Virus record (IMG/VR): IMGVR_UViG_3300001279_000002
Coordinates: 1-57,354 of that record
DNA length: 57,354 nt
Direction: 5' to 3' (one strand)
Source of the DNA: a virus
Taxonomy: Duplodnaviria > Caudoviricetes
In this document: piece by piece, positions 6,072 through 20,174 of the stretch
Numbering within the stretch: the stretch's first letter is position 1
How the letters are laid out: every line of letters begins with the position of its first letter
Translations under genes and position numbers: made by a program
Notes under the pieces: generated by a model
Databases searched by the model: none
What the model was told of the DNA's origin: nothing
Seen by the model: only the letters and a program-made list of their open reading frames with translations

Positions 6072-6747
6072 TTAGCTAGAAGCTGCGGCGTAGGTGTGGA
6101 TGGTGACAGTGCCAAAGTCGGCGCTGTTGAAGCGGGACTTCTTAAGACCCCAGATCGCCCAGCTGGATACTTCCAGCTTACGTTTGTGATCAAAGAGCTC
6201 CTCATTCCAGCGGTACTTCCCCTGTCCGGGGTTGTTCTGCTGGCCGTAAGCGATCATCGCAGCCTGGGCTCCAAGGAGCACAGCGCGGTGAACGGAAGTA
6301 AGGGCGAGGCTGGTAGACTCGCTGACGCCGGTTGCGACGTCCTGCGAAGAACGGAGAATCACCCCGTTATATTCGCCCAGAGCGCCGGTATAGATGGGAT
6401 TGTCAGTGACTTTACCGCCCATCATTGCGGCCTTCTGAATATCCATCCACTGCCCAGAAGAGGCGTTTGTGCGCATGGAGGTGACTTGATATGGATGCAA
6501 GTAGCAGACGTATTTAGGCTGTCCGCCAATCCGGATTGGCCGCACCATGTTGTTGCCAACTTTGGCAAGTTCCACAGCCTGATCAATCAAGTTCAAAGTG
6601 AACACGTCCGACGAAGTAAGACCGTCGTCAGTCGTGCCAGAGCCCGCCGTGATCTTACGCGTCGACGACGGCGCGACAGTAGCGTTAAGGCCCGTGTATT
6701 TAGTGTTGGTCTGCGCCGTATTGCCGCAAACCTGATTGAAAAAGCTG
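6072..6747 (-). CDS. Major capsid protein (N4-gp56/DUF4043-like), exon 2
   Basis: After splicing reads (I)SFFNQVCGNTAQ...YVCYLHPYQVTSMR...GALGEYNGVILR...RAVLLGAQAA...WGLKKSRFNSADFG; in frame with ORF 6072..6605. Confidence 0.88.
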
Positions 6748-7556
6748 CTTTACCTTCGCATCCGCGCGCTGGGCGAACACCGCTCTTTCGAGCTGCTCAT
6801 GGTTTCCCATGAGAGGAGATCATATCATCATCCGCTTTCGCGGAGCCGGGCGCTTCCAGCCGCTTGGCTGTACGGGGTCCCCCTGATCGTTGCGCCTTCC
6901 CTCGACTCGGCGATCCTTTACGAGGATTCCGCCGTTTTGCCGTTTGCCAAAGTTGCAATTATAACAAAGCACTTCAAGATCATCTCGCATACCATTCCGT
7001 AAGATATCTATGTACAGCCCTATGCCGAATTCACGATAGCCGTTTTCTTTTCTAAGCTTCCACCCATCATTATTTATATGATCGATGGTCAAAAACAGTC
7101 TTTCTCGTTCTCCGCAAGCTCTGCACTCATCGCCATACAAATCAAATACTTTATTTTTGATTCGCATGTATCTTACACGGTCTAACTCTTTTGCCCGTTG
7201 CCGCCGCTCTGGCGTCCACACAGCAAGAGGATTCTCTTGATACCGTTCCCGCGCTTTCTGGAGTCTTTCTACCTTATTTGCCTGATGGTGCGACTCAACC
7301 CTTTCGGTGTTGCACTCTTTGCACTCGTGGCGGCGGTAGCCTTTCTCTCGATTGTACACAGGGAACGTATTTAAAGGCTTCGTCTCATTGCACTTTTTAC
7401 AGATTCTGGTCATTAGGGCTCCTGGAGTTTTCTAACCACCAGAATTTCTAACCACCACAACCCCGACTGTCAAGGGCTTGGTTCAGGATTGCCGCCGTCT
7501 TTCACGCTGCGGTGTTCCCTGAGTTCACCCGGTTTAGAGTCCACCAGACTTAGTTA
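6748..7556 (-). mobile_element. Group I self-splicing intron (809 nt) in the major capsid gene
   Basis: P1: exon AGUCCAU pairs with IGS GUGGACU with a U.G pair at the splice site; P element GAACUCAGGGAAC; Q AAUCCUGAACCAAGC; R GCAACGAUCAG; S GAUGAUAUGAUCU; P3 CCGGGUG/CGCCCGG; GAAA-capped P9 hairpins; terminal G at 6748. Splicing restores the frame (AT|C = Ile) to give a 358-aa capsid protein. Confidence 0.93.
6820..7413 (-). CDS. Intron-encoded HNH homing endonuclease
   Basis: CxxC zinc knuckles, CRACGE..LTIDHINNDG...LEVLCYNCN; lies within the intron and its 3' end overlaps ribozyme core elements. Confidence 0.85.
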   Translation of the reverse strand: MTRICKKCNETKPLNTFPVYNREKGYRRHECKECNTERVESHHQANKVERLQKARERYQENPLAVWTPERRQRAKELDRVRYMRIKNKVFDLYGDECRACGERERLFLTIDHINNDGWKLRKENGYREFGIGLYIDILRNGMRDDLEVLCYNCNFGKRQNGGILVKDRRVEGRRNDQGDPVQPSGWKRPAPRKRMMI

Positions 7557-7957
7557 ATGGACTTTCTGTCGCTCCACCACTCGCCCAAAGCATCCTTGCT
7601 CTGCTGGCGGAGGTCGAACGGAACGCGCTGGGCGTCAATCGTGTTGTCCGAACGGACGCCGACGACGTGGCCGAGCTCGTTGATTGTGATGGCGTCGGAA
7701 TAGATCGAGAGCGATTCGCCGTTGCCTTCAGCGACTTCGCTTTCGCTTTTGCCTTCGCCAGTAAGACGAGCGCGAAGGCCAAAGGTGACCTTATCGCCCG
7801 GACCTTTCCGGGATTCGCTTTTGAGTTGGATAATCGAGTTATCCCCCTCACCGATCAAGGGAGCAATGTCCAAGTACTCGCGCTCTGCGACCGCAAGCAT
7901 TTTGCTCCATAGCTTGATCGCCATGGCGTCATTAACGCCAAACGATGTAGTTGCCAT
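7557..7957 (-). CDS. Major capsid protein (N4-gp56/DUF4043-like), exon 1
   Basis: MATTSFGVNDAMAIKLWSK...KGPGDKVTFGLRARLTGEG...AEGNGESL...QRVPFDLR..KDALGEWW. Confidence 0.88.
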
Positions 7958-9697: not shown

Positions 9698-10516
9698 TTA
9701 TCGTATCCCGCCATATATCAGGGGGAGGCTTGTTTTTGTTGCCAGCACCTCTATTTTTTCGCGCGTCGCTGCGAGAACGATGGGTTCCAAGCGGTGAAAT
9801 TTGACTTCAAAACTCAGTTTACTATTTGTGATTCTATACCGGAAAAGCAAGGACAAATCAAAGGTCTCTCCCCCCTCAAAGAGGGGAATGCGGATAACCA
9901 CGGCCTTAGGCACGACGATGTTTTTACCGTTCGACGACGGGCTGTCCTCCTCAAGGCATGTAAGCTGTGTGCAGCCGTTCGACAGCTTTATTTTGCTTTT
10001 TATGGACGATACGCGCGTCACGCTAAGATCGTTGACGAGTTCCGCCAGCGTCGCCGCGTCTGGGCTAATAACGTCCGCTCCGTTCTCCTCCAAAAACTCT
10101 GCAAATGCGTCCTGCCCAAGGAGCCTATTGTTGATTAGGCTCCAGACTAAGAACGAAGGCGACGGCTCAAACTCGTAACGAACTTTATGCTCTCCGCGCC
10201 CAACGCCACTAGGCCCAGATTCGCTGCTGTGGTAGTCGAGAACCGCGATTACCGACCCAGACTGCCCTGTGCGCCCAAAGATCATTGACCGCTCAAGGCT
10301 CTTAAAGGCGTCGACGTAGCGGATAAACGATTCGTCTGTGTCGACGTCGATGGTCTGAGAGATAAATTCCTTCTGGAGCAACACCTTGGGCAAGGTCTGC
10401 AACGTCGTCCCCTCCGGGACGGGGACGACAATGTCTCCGTTATCCCGGCGAATGGGAGCCACGAGCGTTTTTCCCGTTTCGAGTAACAGTCTGATCTGAT
10501 CTGCGGATATGTCCAT
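9698..10516 (-). CDS. DUF2303 (YfdQ-like) family protein
   Basis: ESFIRYV...AVLDYH...QDAFAEFLEEN...IPLFEGG...FRYRI; start refined to MDISAD after AGGAG. Confidence 0.75.
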   Translation of the reverse strand: MDISADQIRLLLETGKTLVAPIRRDNGDIVVPVPEGTTLQTLPKVLLQKEFISQTIDVDTDESFIRYVDAFKSLERSMIFGRTGQSGSVIAVLDYHSSESGPSGVGRGEHKVRYEFEPSPSFLVWSLINNRLLGQDAFAEFLEENGADVISPDAATLAELVNDLSVTRVSSIKSKIKLSNGCTQLTCLEEDSPSSNGKNIVVPKAVVIRIPLFEGGETFDLSLLFRYRITNSKLSFEVKFHRLEPIVLAATREKIEVLATKTSLPLIYGGIR

Positions 10517-10593
10517 GTGTGGGCGCTCCTGGGCGTAAGAAGGCGTGTTTTTACAAACTGGCGTATTGAATGCAGGGGTAAACCGAAAAGGCA

Positions 10594-10920
10594 TTAGTCC
10601 TTATGCAGCCGAACAGACGCCAGGGACGGGCGGTCTAAGTCAAGCCTCCCTTGTCTTGGGTCATTCCTGCCCAGGGAGTTATCATCTTGGACAAACATTA
10701 TCGTCGTTCCCCGCGCGGGGTCTGGGATAACGGCTTTGATTTTGGCGACAACCTGCACGGAGCCGTCTCCGTTAGGCGTTACTTCAATAGTAAGAGTCAA
10801 GGACCCCTTTTTATCAGTCGCCATAACGCCCTCAACCACACCAGCGAGACGACTGGTTAGATCGTCGACAACATTTCCGTGGTTTATTTCAGATAACACT
10901 TCAACAAATGATCTGGCCAT
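10594..10920 (-). CDS. Small conserved partner of DUF2303 protein (YfdP-like)
   Basis: KKGSLTLTIEV.P...L.RNDPRQ..L motif; usual neighbour of DUF2303. Confidence 0.65.
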   Translation of the reverse strand: MARSFVEVLSEINHGNVVDDLTSRLAGVVEGVMATDKKGSLTLTIEVTPNGDGSVQVVAKIKAVIPDPARGTTIMFVQDDNSLGRNDPRQGRLDLDRPSLASVRLHKD

Positions 10921-12041: not shown

Positions 12042-14105
12042 TCAAACTATTTCGCCCCAGTTGGGGCCTATCTCAAGGTCAATTTTGAACGGGACAGAAG
12101 CTGTTACGGCGTTAGCGACAATGCGCGCGATAGCCTCCCCCTCTTCGCGGCTTTCTATCGACAGGTCCACCTCATCATGGACCTGCAGTTGCAGGAAATG
12201 CCCCGCGCGGTCAACGTCAATCATGGCCTTTTTCATCTGGTCTCCGCTGGAGCCCTGAATCAGGCGGTTGAGCGCTTTATGCGTCCACTCATAATTAACG
12301 GCGCGTATTTCGGCGACTTCCGCGCTGGCGTCGCCCTCGTTCGCAGCTTTGATTACGCGGCCCTCAGCTTTTTTAAGCTGACTTTCTTCCGGAAAGCGGC
12401 AACGCCGCCCAAGAACAGTAGTAAGATACCCGTCTCTGCGGGCAACTTTTTGGCACATCTTAGCCAACTCCCGAACAAAAGGGACTTTGCTATCAAATGT
12501 GTCAATGATGCGCTGGCCCTCTTCGCCCGCCACCTCCATTACTCTGGAGCCGTTCGCGATCGCCATTCGCCCAGCGGAGGAGTCAGGGTCAACTACGCTC
12601 CCCTTGTAGTACACAGCCCAGCGTGTTGGGAGGCCCATGTCACGGCACATCTTCGCGCCGCCCTCGCCATACATCAGGCCCAGGCCAAGCGCCTTGGCGT
12701 ACTTCCTGGGCAACCCGCTAATCTCCGCAATCATGGAATGGGAGTCGGTGGCGGGGTCCTCGTTGTAGCGGCGGACCATTTCGGCCGCGCCGCGCAGAGG
12801 AACGCCACGCCGTCGCGTTTTGTACGCGAAATGCACGGCCCATCGGGGTTCCTGCTGGGAGATGTCGGCGCAGCCCCAAAGGCGGCCCTCCTCCGGGATA
12901 TAGATCGATCGCCACGCCTTCGCGAAATCGTCCCGCGATGGCTGCGCCTGCAGGTTCGGGTCCTTCGACGACAACCGCCCAAAGCGCGCGCCCGCTTGGC
13001 CGCCTTCGCCGTCCTCGCTGTCCCCCTTAAGTTGGTTGAACGTCGTATGGATTCGGCCGTTCGTCGCGAACCGGCGAATACTCGTGGCGAACGTCGTCCG
13101 GAGCTTGTTCACTTTCCGCGCGTGGAGAAGCGCGGCGGCAGTTGGGTTTCCTGCGGCCTTCAACAGCGCGGAGTCTATCTTGAGCTGATTCGTCTTGTCC
13201 GTCCGAACGAGCTTCATTCCGATTGCAACAAGCGCCGGGGCGACGGCGTCAGGCTTCCACACGTCGCCGACTTCGATGCTGTGGCCGGTGACGTCCTTTA
13301 TCCGCGCCAGGGCCAGCGCCTCTTGTTCATAGGACCAGCTTTCAACGCGGGACAGCTGATCGAAGTCAATCCGCACTCCGCGTCGACGCATGCGCACAAG
13401 GACAGGCAACAAGTCGGACTCCAGGTCAAAAACCTGCTGGAGATTCTGAGCATCAATGTCCTTTTGTTGATGCGCCAATATTTTCATCGGCAGCCGCGCG
13501 TCGTCTTCGCCATATGGTCCGACATAGCGGGCGGCAAGCTTGTACATTTCCCCCTTAACGTTCTTCAACTGATAGACAGCGGCGGCCTCTTTCAGGAGCG
13601 CTTCGTTTTTACCGACGAACCCGCGCCGCTTGGCGATGGCGTCGAGCCCGTATTCGTGATGCAGCTCATAGATTAATGAATCCGCTATCATCACGTCGCG
13701 GAAGTGGCTGACTCTCGGAAACAGGACGCCATAATTTGCCGCCCAATCCAGATCATAGGATAGGTTTTGCCCAACGATCTCGCCTGTGAACGCGTCAGAC
13801 TGCGCGCGCAGGTACGCCCAGGCTTGCGCCTCGTCTTCCACATTGTCGCCGCCCTCATGGCTTAGCGGGACGTAATGATAGGGACCGTCTTCTATCGCGA
13901 AGGAAAACCCGACGACACGGCCGCCAGGGCGCCGGGGGCCTGGGCCAAGCCCCTTGAACGTTTCCTTGCCTATTTTATGCGACCGCAAAAACGGGTCTTT
14001 GGTTTCAACGTCAAATCCAATGCGCCGCGCGCCTGCCCAGGTGGGCAAATCAGCGATGCGCGGAGGCCGCCAATCGGAGACGGGGGGAAACAGATCAAAC
14101 TGCAT
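12042..14105 (-). CDS. polA: DNA polymerase family A with 3'-5' exonuclease domain
   Basis: ExoI FDVET, ExoII NLSYD, GRLSSKDPNLQ, motif A DISQQEPR, motif B RKYAKALGLGLMYG, motif C QVHDE. Confidence 0.95.
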   Translation of the reverse strand: MQFDLFPPVSDWRPPRIADLPTWAGARRIGFDVETKDPFLRSHKIGKETFKGLGPGPRRPGGRVVGFSFAIEDGPYHYVPLSHEGGDNVEDEAQAWAYLRAQSDAFTGEIVGQNLSYDLDWAANYGVLFPRVSHFRDVMIADSLIYELHHEYGLDAIAKRRGFVGKNEALLKEAAAVYQLKNVKGEMYKLAARYVGPYGEDDARLPMKILAHQQKDIDAQNLQQVFDLESDLLPVLVRMRRRGVRIDFDQLSRVESWSYEQEALALARIKDVTGHSIEVGDVWKPDAVAPALVAIGMKLVRTDKTNQLKIDSALLKAAGNPTAAALLHARKVNKLRTTFATSIRRFATNGRIHTTFNQLKGDSEDGEGGQAGARFGRLSSKDPNLQAQPSRDDFAKAWRSIYIPEEGRLWGCADISQQEPRWAVHFAYKTRRRGVPLRGAAEMVRRYNEDPATDSHSMIAEISGLPRKYAKALGLGLMYGEGGAKMCRDMGLPTRWAVYYKGSVVDPDSSAGRMAIANGSRVMEVAGEEGQRIIDTFDSKVPFVRELAKMCQKVARRDGYLTTVLGRRCRFPEESQLKKAEGRVIKAANEGDASAEVAEIRAVNYEWTHKALNRLIQGSSGDQMKKAMIDVDRAGHFLQLQVHDEVDLSIESREEGEAIARIVANAVTASVPFKIDLEIGPNWGEIV

Positions 14106-15937: not shown

Positions 15938-17383
15938 TTAGAACACGTTTGCCGTAGCGATAGCCTTACTTTCGTTAAGCTCCAGCGAGAGTTTTTGAAT
16001 AAGCATCACGTCGCCAGGGACAAGATTACCTTCTGGCATAAAACACAGCCCCCGTACGCGGCGGCCGTTTTTGTCAAGCTGGTAAACGTTCATTTGCCTA
16101 CCGCGCGTTATGCGATAGGTTTTTCCAGAGCTCCCGCCCATGACGTCAAAGCAGCCGTTTGCGTCGAGCTGGGAAAGCTGGCTGTCCGACAGGTTTTCGC
16201 GGAGAAGCTTTTCAGCGCGCGCCTCCGCCGCAGTCTCCCGGACGCGGGCGGCGCCGTAAAACGACGGAAAGCGCATGAGCTGCTCACGCGCAATGTACCC
16301 CGTGCATTCGGGGCCGTTGTTTACGATTCCCATGCCATACGTCGCAGCGTCTTCCATGGCGCGGAGATGCGCGTCAGACAGACCTCCTTGGAGTTCTCCC
16401 GGCGTAAGGGGAAGCTGGCCGCCCATGAGCGCCGCAAGCGTCTGACGGTTAAGGTCACGCGCCAAGTTGCGCAATAGGTCCTGCTGGGCTGCTACAGGAT
16501 CACGGCGCTGATACGCCGCCGCCATATCCCAACGCTGTTCATATTGCGCGCGCCACCCCTGGCGATCGCGCGCCGCATTCTCTTGCCTGCGCGGCTGGCC
16601 GGGGCCTCCGCCCCAATCGCAAAAATATGGGTCCGCCAGCGCTATGCCCATGGCCGCCTCCTGCTCAATGTCCGGCGATGGGAACACCTGGGCAAGCATG
16701 GCGCGAATGGTTTCCGCCCAGCTGGCTGTCTGCGGCGTGATGTGCGCCAGATCGATGGCGCGTTTCGCTACGTCGCACGCCGCGCGCAAATAGAAGTTGC
16801 GGCGGCCCTCATGGTGAAGCAGCGCCTGCATGAGCGCCGCAGGCGTCGGATGTAGGCGCGTGAACACATCCTGATCCGGACGCCAGGACCACGCGGAGGC
16901 GTCCCCACGCTCACGGTGAAACGCCGCCCCCACGTCCGACAGGCGCGAAACGTGGGAAGGGGAGAGCGGATATGACAGAATAGCCGCAGTAGCAGAGGGC
17001 GCCATAATGTCAGAAGAGGGAAGAACAGCCTCGCTATGCGCTCTTTCCGCGCATCTCCGCATTTCACGGATGTCTGCCCTGAAGTCCTGATTGACGTGTT
17101 TGGCGTAGGCGCTTGACCAAAGCGCCAGGATGGCAGGGGCGGAGACGAAAGCGAAGTCGCGCGCGCTGAACTCGAACGCTGTGAATGATAGGTCGACCCG
17201 TTCGCCAGAGGCAAAAGAAACCCGCGTGCAGACACGATACTGCGCCTCATCCTCCCACACATCGAACGATGCAGGGGGAGGGAAAAACGTGATTCCATCT
17301 CCCCCTTTCCTATCGATGTATTGACGAAAAGCGTCTTCAAACGCCTGTGCAATGTGTTCTGTTTTCTCCGCACGCGACGCCAT
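15938..17383 (-). CDS. Hypothetical protein with C-terminal Cys-containing domain; partner of the GG-ending protein
   Basis: 481 aa; C-terminal ~95 aa AEKLLRENLSDSQ...TYRI...NVYQLD...GLCFMPEGNLVPGDVMLIQKLSLE...AN; starts 1 nt after the upstream stop. Confidence 0.7.
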   Translation of the reverse strand: MASRAEKTEHIAQAFEDAFRQYIDRKGGDGITFFPPPASFDVWEDEAQYRVCTRVSFASGERVDLSFTAFEFSARDFAFVSAPAILALWSSAYAKHVNQDFRADIREMRRCAERAHSEAVLPSSDIMAPSATAAILSYPLSPSHVSRLSDVGAAFHRERGDASAWSWRPDQDVFTRLHPTPAALMQALLHHEGRRNFYLRAACDVAKRAIDLAHITPQTASWAETIRAMLAQVFPSPDIEQEAAMGIALADPYFCDWGGGPGQPRRQENAARDRQGWRAQYEQRWDMAAAYQRRDPVAAQQDLLRNLARDLNRQTLAALMGGQLPLTPGELQGGLSDAHLRAMEDAATYGMGIVNNGPECTGYIAREQLMRFPSFYGAARVRETAAEARAEKLLRENLSDSQLSQLDANGCFDVMGGSSGKTYRITRGRQMNVYQLDKNGRRVRGLCFMPEGNLVPGDVMLIQKLSLELNESKAIATANVF

Positions 17384-17384
17384 G

Positions 17385-17606
17385 TCAGCCCCCAATGAGA
17401 TGGGGGAGCATGATTATTTTCGTGGCCGTACGGTCAAACGCCTGGATTATGCGCTTGTTGTCGGGGTCCGAGACGTCGGCCGCCGCGTAACCTTTGGCGC
17501 GCAGATCGTTGAAGACGGCCATGCAGCTGGAAACGGCCGCGTCGTCATCGGCCGTGAACTCCATGCGCGTGTCTCCGGAGGCGTCTGGGATTATGAGCTG
17601 TGGCAT
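17385..17606 (-). CDS. Small protein ending in di-glycine (ubiquitin-like/sulfur-carrier-like candidate)
   Basis: 73 aa MPQLIIPDASGDTRMEF...IIMLPHLIGG-stop; AAGGAG RBS; own promoter. Confidence 0.7.
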   Translation of the reverse strand: MPQLIIPDASGDTRMEFTADDDAAVSSCMAVFNDLRAKGYAAADVSDPDNKRIIQAFDRTATKIIMLPHLIGG

Positions 17607-17633
17607 GTGGCGTGACTCCTTTGTTGAGTGGCG

Positions 17634-17662
17634 AGAATGGCCCTGTTTTCGGCCATTGTAAA
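17634..17662 (-). promoter_or_regulatory. Phage consensus promoter copy (TTTACA-ATGGCCGAA..-CATTCT)
   Basis: Same motif as at 32200, 49904, 52666, 54610, 56663; 17-bp spacer. Confidence 0.7.
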
Positions 17663-17669
17663 GCATGCT

Positions 17670-17915
17670 TTACGCGAACCCGTAAAATCTCCCAACGCGC
17701 CAGAGATTGTTCGCCGCCGCCTTCGAGTGGAAAACCAACAGCGGATCAAGCACGCCCTTAGCGAGCTCCTCCGGCGTCGGGGCCTCAAGGCGGCCGCCGC
17801 GCCGCATGACGTTAACCGCCGTGCACGCCGTGCAAACGGTAAGATCGCCGGTTTTCGGTTTCTGTCGGGGAGTCCACTGCGGAACGTCTTTGCATACAAA
17901 ACAATGAGTTGTCAT
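17670..17915 (-). CDS. Small zinc-finger hypothetical protein
   Basis: CFVC and CTAC pairs. Confidence 0.5.
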   Translation of the reverse strand: MTTHCFVCKDVPQWTPRQKPKTGDLTVCTACTAVNVMRRGGRLEAPTPEELAKGVLDPLLVFHSKAAANNLWRVGRFYGFA

Positions 17916-18688: not shown

Positions 18689-19909
18689 TTAGCTCCTATC
18701 ATTGTAGTCTTTAATTACGGTAACCCTGTTTGAGGCCCTTGTTATTGCTGTGTAGAGCCACTTATTGCGATCGCGCCGAAACACTTCGCTCTGATCTGCA
18801 ACCATAACAGACGGCCACTCGCTCCCCTGGGCTTTATGGGCCGTCAATGCATACCCAAAATCAAACTCGTCTTTGTCTCGGCGGCCCCAATATGGGACGT
18901 CAAGCCCAAGGAAATGCTCTCTGTGCGCGGCGACTTCCCGCACGAATGACCCGTCATCAGCCTCTATCGTCATATTAACCGATTCTCCGTCATCCTCAGC
19001 GGCTATGACGTTGAACAACATGCCATTTAACAGGCCGCTTTCCTTGTTGTTACGAAGACAGACAATGCGGTCTCCTTTGCCCCCCTCATTACGCGGGCCT
19101 TGCGGGAAATCCCCTGTGAACCCCAGCTGGGCGCGCATGGATCTATTTGCCGCGCGGCGCGTTGGATTGGTGCCAACCAACGTTTGATCGTGGGCAAGCC
19201 CAGAACCGCGCGGAAGGTCTTTACGCCGACAAACACGGCTTTCGCCATATTCGCCCAGGCGCAGTTCTTGCCCGTTGCGAACCTGCGTCGCCAGACGGAG
19301 AACGGGGGAATCAAGCGCCGTCCGATGGACCTCCGTAAGCATCACGTCGGGGTTGTCTTGCGGGAAAAACCCAGACCCCTTGACCGGGGGGAGCTGAAAC
19401 GGATCGCCCAGGGCAAGAATAGGCGTTCCGAAAGTCATCATGTCGTGACCGATGTATTTATCGATCATACTACATTCGTCGACTATGAGCAGATCGCAGT
19501 CTTTTATTGGGCTGTCAGGGTTTAAGGAAAACGACGGTTTACTATGCCGTGCGTTCTCTTCCGCCAACTCCTTTTTTAGAACGTCAAGCTTTTCAGGGTC
19601 TGTTTCTTCCTCGATCTGGGCGCGCAGCTCGTTGATGCGCATCTGTGACTTTGCCTTGGGGTTGTACAAAAGAGAATGGATCGTAGACGCCCCAAGACAG
19701 CCCTTGCGGTTGAGCACAAGGGCGGCCTTGCCCGTGTACGCCCCAAAGAGGACGCGGCCGTCTACAGCCTCAGCAAGACCTTTGGCGATGAATGTTTTTC
19801 CTGTCCCTGCAGGACCAAACAGGCGGAAGAACTCTCCGCGCGGGTTTCCGCTGAACCAGCGCTGAAACTCCTTCAGCGCGGCGTCCTGTTGTGGTGACCA
19901 TGTTGACAT
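18689..19909 (-). CDS. SF1B RecD/Dda-like DNA helicase
   Basis: GPAGTGKT, AYTGKAA, IVDECSM, GDPFQLPPV, YALTAHKAQGSEW, LYTAITRA. Confidence 0.92.
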   Translation of the reverse strand: MSTWSPQQDAALKEFQRWFSGNPRGEFFRLFGPAGTGKTFIAKGLAEAVDGRVLFGAYTGKAALVLNRKGCLGASTIHSLLYNPKAKSQMRINELRAQIEEETDPEKLDVLKKELAEENARHSKPSFSLNPDSPIKDCDLLIVDECSMIDKYIGHDMMTFGTPILALGDPFQLPPVKGSGFFPQDNPDVMLTEVHRTALDSPVLRLATQVRNGQELRLGEYGESRVCRRKDLPRGSGLAHDQTLVGTNPTRRAANRSMRAQLGFTGDFPQGPRNEGGKGDRIVCLRNNKESGLLNGMLFNVIAAEDDGESVNMTIEADDGSFVREVAAHREHFLGLDVPYWGRRDKDEFDFGYALTAHKAQGSEWPSVMVADQSEVFRRDRNKWLYTAITRASNRVTVIKDYNDRS

Positions 19910-20174
19910 GTTGGGCTCCCTCTGGTGATAGCGCGCCAGCACGCGCCTTGGCTAAGAATCGTCCATTGGTCTGGGCTCTGCGCACACGTCGACGCGCAGG
20001 AGGGAACCGGCAGCCGTCGACGTATCGGGAAGATACACCGTGCTGGCGGCGGAGCGCAAAGCCCAGGCCAATGGATGATTTAAGGAGCGGGGGAGGACAG
20101 CAACGCCAGAAGCAGAACCTCCCCCTTTCTGCGCGGACGGATGGGCCCGCGCAGAATTACAGTTCTTGTGACAG

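Follow-up and report, generated by a model that had tools for sequence, protein, structure and literature searches.

A gene pair of phages, plasmids and Bradyrhizobium joins a predicted beta-grasp protein with a Gly-Gly end to a partner with an invariant cysteine

We analysed the linear IMG/VR virus record IMGVR_UViG_3300001279_000002 over its whole length of 57,354 bases (hereafter the window), which has an estimated completeness of 54% and the gene content of a tailed phage. On its minus strand, flanked by a polymerase gene and a helicase gene, lies a two-gene unit that a preliminary description, made from the sequence alone, had proposed to be a minimal ubiquitin-like (Ubl) conjugation pair: a small protein ending in a free Gly-Gly (GG), followed by a larger partner with a cysteine-containing domain. 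The unit comprises the following features, with lengths in nucleotides (nt) or amino acids (aa).

15938..17383, minus strand: partner gene of 481 aa, with its ATG at 17383, 1 nt past the small-gene stop (open reading frame translation)
15941..16270, minus strand: partner residues 372-481, the portable conserved domain
16043..16045, minus strand: codon of Cys447, within the motif LCF-x-P-x-G at the end of strand 4 (alignments, AlphaFold2)
16271..17383, minus strand: partner residues 1-371, the lineage-specific N-terminal region (poor AlphaFold2 model, alignment)
17385..17606, minus strand: small gene of 73 aa, with the C-terminal end IIMLPHLIGG followed by TGA at 17385-17387 (translation)
17616..17620, minus strand: AGGAG ribosome-binding site, 9 nt 5' of the small-gene ATG (sequence reading)
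17659..17672, strand not assigned: 14-nt perfect palindrome TAAAGCATGCTTTA (sequence reading)

Translation confirmed both open reading frames (ORFs) as they had been described, the 73-aa frame with its GG end and the 481-aa frame starting 1 nt further on, and GLCFMPEGNLVPGDVMLIQKLSLE was present in the C-terminal part of the partner. The position of the partner ATG, directly behind the small-gene stop, suggests that the two genes are translationally coupled. The dedicated promoter that had been claimed for the unit could not be confirmed, since a scan for the sigma-70 consensus gave no promoter site 5' of the small gene and only the hexamer TACAAT (17655-17660) and the palindrome were visible upstream. 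The palindrome abuts TACAAT and overlaps the TAA stop of an upstream 81-aa ORF, and it may be an operator, a promoter element or a terminator remnant.

A phmmer search with the small protein against 1.84 billion cluster representatives gave 126 matches at E ≤ 0.001. These matches, together with the window protein and P0006, were aligned in 118 rows (alignment A2), leaving out ten long or repeat-containing proteins (P0023-P0025, P0028, P0029, P0031, P0051, P0103, P0120 and P0126). The exact C-terminal GG was found in 108 of the 118 representatives; six of the other ten end in AG or SG, in three the GG is extended by 1, 2 or 35 residues, and one lacks GG. The GG-stop arrangement was also found in each of 80 small ORFs from the bacterial loci described below, so that conservation of the GG end, which the preliminary description had regarded as the hallmark of a modifier, was borne out in both samples. 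Five of the long proteins (P0023, P0024, P0025, P0028 and P0031, of 627-4736 aa) align in several repeated stretches with short segments of the small protein, P0025 with residues 6-26 and the other four with residues ~23-66, and these matches could stem from a common helix-strand motif or from compositional noise. A sixth, P0029 (328 aa), was considered as a natural fusion and rejected, because its sequence reads as a frameshift across the GG-stop/ATG junction.

Scans of the small protein against Pfam, NCBIfam, PHROGs and PADLOC gave no usable match, and none of the 118 members of A2 matched the Pfam models for ubiquitin, ThiS or MoaD; a match of the window protein (P0001) to the BTRD1 structural repeat, at an E value of 0.01 and below the cut-off, was treated as noise. 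When modelled by AlphaFold2 with A2, the small protein reached a predicted local distance difference test score (pLDDT) of 89.7 and showed the order strand-strand-helix-strand-strand-strand, followed by a flexible tail. Structure searches with Foldseek and VIA returned leading matches that were nearly all beta-grasp or Ubl proteins, including SUMO, MoaD and ISG15, with weak scores throughout; CysO and TtuB were also among the structural matches. In the PDB, Foldseek retrieved RA, UBX, ubiquitin, Hub1 and PB1 structures (weak, best E 0.045), and in BFVD viral ubiquitin-family proteins topped the list (weak, E at least 0.44). The clusters returned from the ESM Atlas were unnamed, the nearest named one being ThiS with a weak score of 0.75. 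We accept a modelled beta-grasp (ubiquitin-fold) topology with a GG signature for the small protein, which agrees with the fold that had been anticipated, and since the structure scores are weak we claim no named Ubl family for it.

Full-length relatives of the 481-aa partner were rare (three clusters, at 90, 71 and 54% identity). Its last ~100 residues form a portable domain, which is also found in stand-alone relatives of ~116-180 aa. Within this domain Cys447, whose conservation had been named as a point to check, was invariant in all three alignment sets (18/18, 8/8 and 81/81 sequences). Also invariant, in the 18- and 8-sequence alignments, were F448, P450, G452, G457, D458, Q463, K464, E468 and N479, and a second cysteine of the partner (in GCFDV) varied among relatives. 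The N-terminal region is divergent between phage lineages and missing from the short bacterial forms of ~140-165 aa, a pattern that would be compatible with an adaptor role. A Walker A reading of the stretch GGSSGKT was rejected, as its spacing is one residue short and its K/T residues are not conserved.

AlphaFold2 modelled the full-length partner poorly (pLDDT 52, with the N-terminal region mostly below 60) and residues ~390-480 with a pLDDT of about 80-88. The modelled domain consists of two helices, a four-strand meander ending at Cys447, and two further helices. The fold evidence for the domain is mixed: Foldseek with the full-length model found no PDB structure at E ≤ 0.001, and a fold search with the Cys domain gave 11 rows spanning the domain, six of which were entries of the E2 superfold (including, lower in the list, RWDD1, 3.9, and VPS37A UEV-like, 3.8).

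For the pairing of the two genes we used two sets of loci: five viral loci found via the small protein, two of which are near-identical, and 80 bacterial loci found via the Cys domain, these being the best 80 of 430 confirmed stretches in a collection with one genome per species. At all five viral loci a larger Cys-domain ORF directly follows the small gene, with a start that overlaps or abuts the GG-stop. Among the 80 bacterial loci, 79 have the small gene in the same orientation as the partner ORF, which it abuts or overlaps, the exception being cut by a contig end; the first possible start of the partner is usually within ~20 nt of the small-gene stop, or overlaps it. Both genes were also present together on 13 of 13 Bradyrhizobium plasmids, and in Bradyrhizobium sp. 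Rc3b (L076, 5643-7348) two complete pairs stand in tandem. The statement of the preliminary description that this pair is met repeatedly in bacteria as well as in phages was verified, as was the co-occurrence of its genes; full-length relatives of the 481-aa protein are, however, rare. The GG end, Cys447 and the adjacency of the genes are conserved far beyond chance, and the two genes are one self-contained, probably translationally coupled module. One locus on a plasmid of Bradyrhizobium sp. CB82 (L001, 6382-6672) has the reversed order, with the Cys-domain gene first and a small ORF ending in PRLVVG, and may be a decaying copy.

The best 80 stretches came from Bradyrhizobium, Hyphomicrobiaceae, Rhodomicrobium and allied metagenome-assembled genomes, and most copies found lay on chromosomes or plasmids of Bradyrhizobium and other Hyphomicrobiales, which are alphaproteobacteria. 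Five complete Bradyrhizobium genomes carried 2, 1, 3, 4 and 6 copies of the small gene, and in several strains the pair was seen on two contigs (for example L036/L044, L060/L068 and L058/L064). Elsewhere, the module turned up in 4 genomes from a sample of 400 other Pseudomonadota, and there were three strong matches among 150 other genomes of the central family. Searches of 50,697 GenBank phage records, by megablast with the 8-kb region and by tblastn with P0002, P0001 and the L005 partner, gave no match, so that at this sensitivity the pair is unmatched among deposited phage genomes. The neighbourhoods in the phages were replication genes in the window, capsid-like genes in L003/L006 and lysis-like genes in L004 (the latter labels given by eye), and these differences indicate that the pair occupies different modules in different phages. 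On the ~100-kb viral contigs L003 and L006/L007 the pair is directly preceded by an ORF of 272-279 aa that was assigned to no family (L003, 5008-5847; L006, 5032-5850), and it is followed by an ORF that looks capsid-like by eye. The module is thus taxonomically narrow, patchy, mobile and multi-copy. Of the earlier proposal of a phage-encoded system, the presence in phages stood, whereas the pair turned out not to be phage-specific, and with its multi-copy spread a selfish or conflict module fits as well as a tagging system.

We predicted the complex of the small protein (with A2) and partner residues 372-481 (with alignment A1), alongside three controls. The interaction prediction score from aligned errors (ipSAE) was 0.90, 0.90 and 0.88, versus 0.17 for the best control; the level of the pair was attained by 58 of 80 solved complexes and by 2 of 110 mismatched pairs. 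The prediction runs agreed in 100% of contacts (81-84 contacts), with a partner pLDDT of at least 93. On the side of the small protein the interface is made up of the conserved D-x-[TS]-G-D hairpin (residues 7-12), the sheet face (41-53 and 65) and the tail (67-73), and on the side of the partner it is made up of helices 382-399 and 458-479 and the loop 447-455 that starts with Cys447. F448 and P450 are packed against L70 and I71 of the tail, and the interface residues include G72, G73 and C447. Whether the GG end would come near the cysteine had been raised at the outset, and the predicted complex does place the tail on the Cys-bearing loop; since the prediction gave no distances, this holds at the resolution of interface residues. 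This model supports binding of the small protein to its partner with the GG tail on the Cys loop and, like the fold class, the invariance and the pairing, it is a computational result.

The predicted pose, in which the Ubl beta-sheet face lies on the first helix after the cysteine and the tail runs to the Cys loop, resembles the closed arrangement of E2~Ub. The pair as a whole is reminiscent of a Ubl with its E2 (UBC) enzyme, such as SUMO-Ubc9, in having a beta-grasp protein with a free GG. In contrast to UBC enzymes, the partner domain has its cysteine at the very end of strand 4, is only ~100 aa long without the last E2 helices, has no sequence or profile similarity to them and has no E1 (activating enzyme) nearby. 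Cys447 lies within the predicted tail-binding loop, and its equivalence to the E2 active site is putative.

Taken together, an invariant GG on a beta-grasp protein, an invariant cysteine, a cognate partner and a pose that brings the tail to the cysteine point to a reaction of the carboxylate, and an E2-like thioester carrier is the most economical model. According to this model, the small protein would be a ubiquitin-like modifier that is made with a ready, free GG end. A host adenylating enzyme of the ThiF/MoeB type would activate its C-terminal carboxylate, and the activated protein would then move as a thioester onto Cys447 of the partner. In this role the partner would serve as a minimal E2-like carrier or ligase, and its domain would clasp the beta-sheet face of the small protein while the L-I-G-G tail is laid along the loop starting at Cys447; in phages, the choice of target would fall to the long and divergent N-terminal region. 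Any covalent chemistry and its targets, the origin of the activation and the gain for the phage are inferred from the computed features, and we hold this E1-less Ubl/E2-like reading tentatively, at a little less than an even chance. The wider proposal of a minimal tagging system, in which a phage would tag host or phage proteins with the N-terminus as adaptor, by means of a hijacked host ThiF/MoeB or defence E1 (Cap2/Bil) or by a new way of carboxylate activation, we regard as rather unlikely.

Because an activating enzyme is neither encoded in the pair nor linked to it, an unlinked host enzyme of the ThiF/MoeB type would have to supply the activation. Each of the five complete Bradyrhizobium genomes has 3-5 ThiF-family genes, unlinked to the pair, and these could be the source. 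One Bradyrhizobium genome with two copies of the pair (G006) also encodes a 646-aa Cap2-like E2-E1 fusion (L094; G006:C1:5402446-5405787), in which one open frame matches both Prok-E2_B (E 8e-11) and ThiF (E 6e-17). This fusion is a candidate host defence enzyme of the Ubl type, and might interact with the pair.

Several results weigh against thioester transfer to an E2-like partner. At the sequence level the partner had no Pfam match even at E ≤ 1, including to UQ_con/Prok-E2, RWD and UEV; scans against NCBIfam and PADLOC were empty, PHROGs likewise gave no usable match, and a profile search of the PDB gave nothing relevant and no E2. When the partner domain was compared by hhalign with nine Cap2-type Prok-E2_B domains from Pseudomonadota genomes, the probability was 0.6%, and there is no HPN motif before Cys447 (the local sequence being R-G-L-C-F-M-P-E-G). 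Given these negative sequence-level tests and the missing HPN, we call the Cys domain E2/RWD-like in modelled architecture, with an invariant cysteine, and not a demonstrated E2; for the earlier designation of the partner as E2-like, the fold-level evidence was mixed and a sequence-level link to E2 families did not emerge. At the level of gene content, a ThiF-family E1 was found in none of six phage records (the window and five related ones, one of them 96% complete) and Prok-JAB in none of the five phage records searched, which agrees with the earlier statement that the window has neither gene. Within ~70 kb of 16 copies in the five Bradyrhizobium genomes there was no above-cut-off ThiF gene, and when the flanking ORFs of 85 loci were clustered, no third gene proved to be conserved. 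What recurs next to the pair is an antisense shadow ORF and a few other ORF clusters, none of them seen in more than 21 of the 85 loci, which we tentatively attribute to local Bradyrhizobium synteny. Moreover, the invariant residues of the two proteins are, with few exceptions, part of their cores or of the mutual interface, which leaves no obvious conserved surface for an E1 or a target. Finally, the multi-copy, patchy and mobile spread, together with the large and confident interface, is more typical of an obligate complex or of an addiction or conflict module than of an E2~Ubl pair that forms transiently.

These last points lead to the main rival explanation, an obligate non-covalent heterodimer in which the GG tail plugs a pocket of the Cys domain, and which would act in a toxin-antitoxin-like manner or as a decoy or sponge against Ubl-based defence (Cap2-CBASS, Bil). 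Such a heterodimer would fit coupled genes with the small one first, the presence on conjugative plasmids, phages and chromosomes in 1-6 copies per Bradyrhizobium genome, the tandem pair in L076 and the variable position within phage genomes; it would also fit the missing linked E1, JAB or third gene, and an interface that covers the Cys loop. The Cap2-like gene of G006, a genome of the host type, would be in line with this rival as well. The likeness to type II toxin-antitoxin systems extends to the small upstream and larger downstream gene and to the patchy, multi-copy occurrence on all three kinds of replicon, but these systems differ in that a DNA-binding domain such as type II antitoxins use is not evident in the beta-grasp protein, the pair includes no known toxin family, and a strict GG end would be atypical. 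The pair also has no PADLOC match, and the GG end in 188 of 198 sequences, together with the invariant cysteine, points to carboxylate chemistry instead of plugging. On balance we judge the non-covalent heterodimer to be unlikely, although a serious competitor to the thioester model.

Weaker than this rival are two further readings. In the first, the small protein would be a sulfur carrier of the ThiS/MoaD type, thiocarboxylated by a host MoeB/ThiF enzyme and a sulfurtransferase, and the cysteine of the partner would be a persulfide relay or part of a sulfur-inserting enzyme. The GG-ended beta-grasp fold with its MoaD, CysO and TtuB matches and the weak ThiS cluster, the availability of host ThiF-family genes and the lack of E2-type motifs in the partner are all in line with it, and a tail inserted in the partner recalls MoaD-MoaE. 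Against it stand the lack of any Pfam ThiS/MoaD match, the outcome of the flanking-ORF clustering, by which no biosynthetic, rhodanese or PP-loop genes were linked to the pair, a multi-copy mobile spread that would be unusual for cofactor biosynthesis, and a partner fold that matches RWD/E2 and not MoaE, ThiG or TusA; we consider a sulfur carrier improbable. More improbable still is a role of the Cys domain as a small cysteine peptidase or hydrolase for GG tails, akin to a deubiquitinase, with the small protein as product, substrate mimic or inhibitor, for although the invariant cysteine lies beside the bound tail in the predicted complex, the invariant polar residues D458, Q463, K464, E468, N432 and N479 could form a catalytic set and a few family members have short extensions past GG, an invariant His is absent from the domain in the 18- and 8-sequence alignments, fold searches retrieved neither papain-like nor JAB peptidases nor any of another kind, and 108 of the 118 small proteins need no processing.

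Bacterial Ubl conjugation, as in CBASS Cap2, Bil and Bub, has recently emerged as an antiphage strategy, and a precedent for a borrowed E1 is given by SAMP/UbaA, Thermus TtuB/TtuC and Urm1/Uba4, in which GG-ended beta-grasp proteins share their E1 with sulfur carriers. The thioester model places the pair close to these proteins, in that an unlinked, shared E1-like enzyme would activate a GG-terminal beta-grasp protein; the pair differs from SAMP, TtuB and Urm1, which double as sulfur carriers and have no dedicated E2-like partner, by its adjacent cognate Cys-domain protein. It likewise differs from RWD/UEV domains, which typically have no active-site cysteine, in the invariance of Cys447, and no Pfam RWD/UEV match was obtained. 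Passages of Iyer 2006 (PMC1779556) describe E1-E2-JAB-Ubl clusters with Ubls that end in a C-terminal Gly and with RWD-like E2 domains, and also bacterial RWD-like domains of the E2 fold without a cysteine, from which the present domain is set apart by its invariant one. As portrayed in parts of three papers (PMC11601596, PMC11601603, PMC1779556), all described bacterial Ubl operons encode an E1 themselves, and in most cases also a JAB or another peptidase. With BilABCD, Bub, CBASS Cap2/Cap3 and the Iyer clusters, as far as these excerpts describe them, the pair shares a prokaryotic Ubl next to an E2-like protein in mobile, conflict-associated contexts; unlike them it has no E1 or JAB of its own and no PADLOC match, and the copy in the window is phage-encoded. 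Passages of Iyer 2006 (PMC1779556) also cover TAPI of lambda and T1, a phage beta-grasp domain with a conserved C-terminal Gly that is linked to a JAB peptidase. The small protein is likewise phage-encoded and of predicted beta-grasp fold with a conserved C-terminal Gly, but in contrast to TAPI, which by the same passages is fused to a further domain and linked in the tail module to the JAB/NlpC protein TAPK, it is free-standing, lies in a replication region, has no JAB and has a different partner.

Full-text searching of the literature gave no description of the pair, and supplementary tables, which lie outside such a search, could list the families. We rate the pair as a new, E1-less, phage- and plasmid-borne variant of the known bacterial Ubl systems, consisting of a Ubl and a Cys-domain protein between which transfer would take place. 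If the pair is indeed a minimal tagging system, this would be the first phage-encoded Ubl-E2 conjugation module. With a Ubl and a cognate Cys partner but no E1, mobile elements may tag proteins by parasitising host activating enzymes, or may instead jam Ubl-based immunity with mimics of Ubl and E2. The pair would give names to two families that match no model in Pfam, NCBIfam, PHROGs or PADLOC, and it is a tractable system of two proteins (73 aa and about 100-140 aa) with clear point mutants (delta-GG and C447A).

The other genes of the window for which positions were recorded are the following.

9698-10594, minus strand: DUF2303 protein
12042-14105: family A DNA polymerase
18689-19942: SF1 helicase

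In addition, the window encodes Pam3 gp34-like and Pam3 gp33-like proteins, an SNF2 helicase, an amidase, a D5-type primase, an FtsK-like ATPase, and capsid and adaptor proteins. The major capsid gene (Pfam Phage_capsid_3; 6072-7957, minus strand) is split into two parts, the first of which (7550-7957) covers profile positions 2-126 (E 2e-28), while the second (6072-6749, a stop-to-stop frame) covers positions 129-375 (E 2.5e-52). Rfam gave no intron family at E ≤ 0.1 for the split gene, and a Cys-rich ORF (6820-7431) in the ~800 nt between the parts had no Pfam match above the cut-off. This ORF contains CxxC pairs and the motif 'DHINNDG ... CYNCN', which looks HNH-like by eye, and the capsid gene may be interrupted by an intron or by an inserted homing-endonuclease element.

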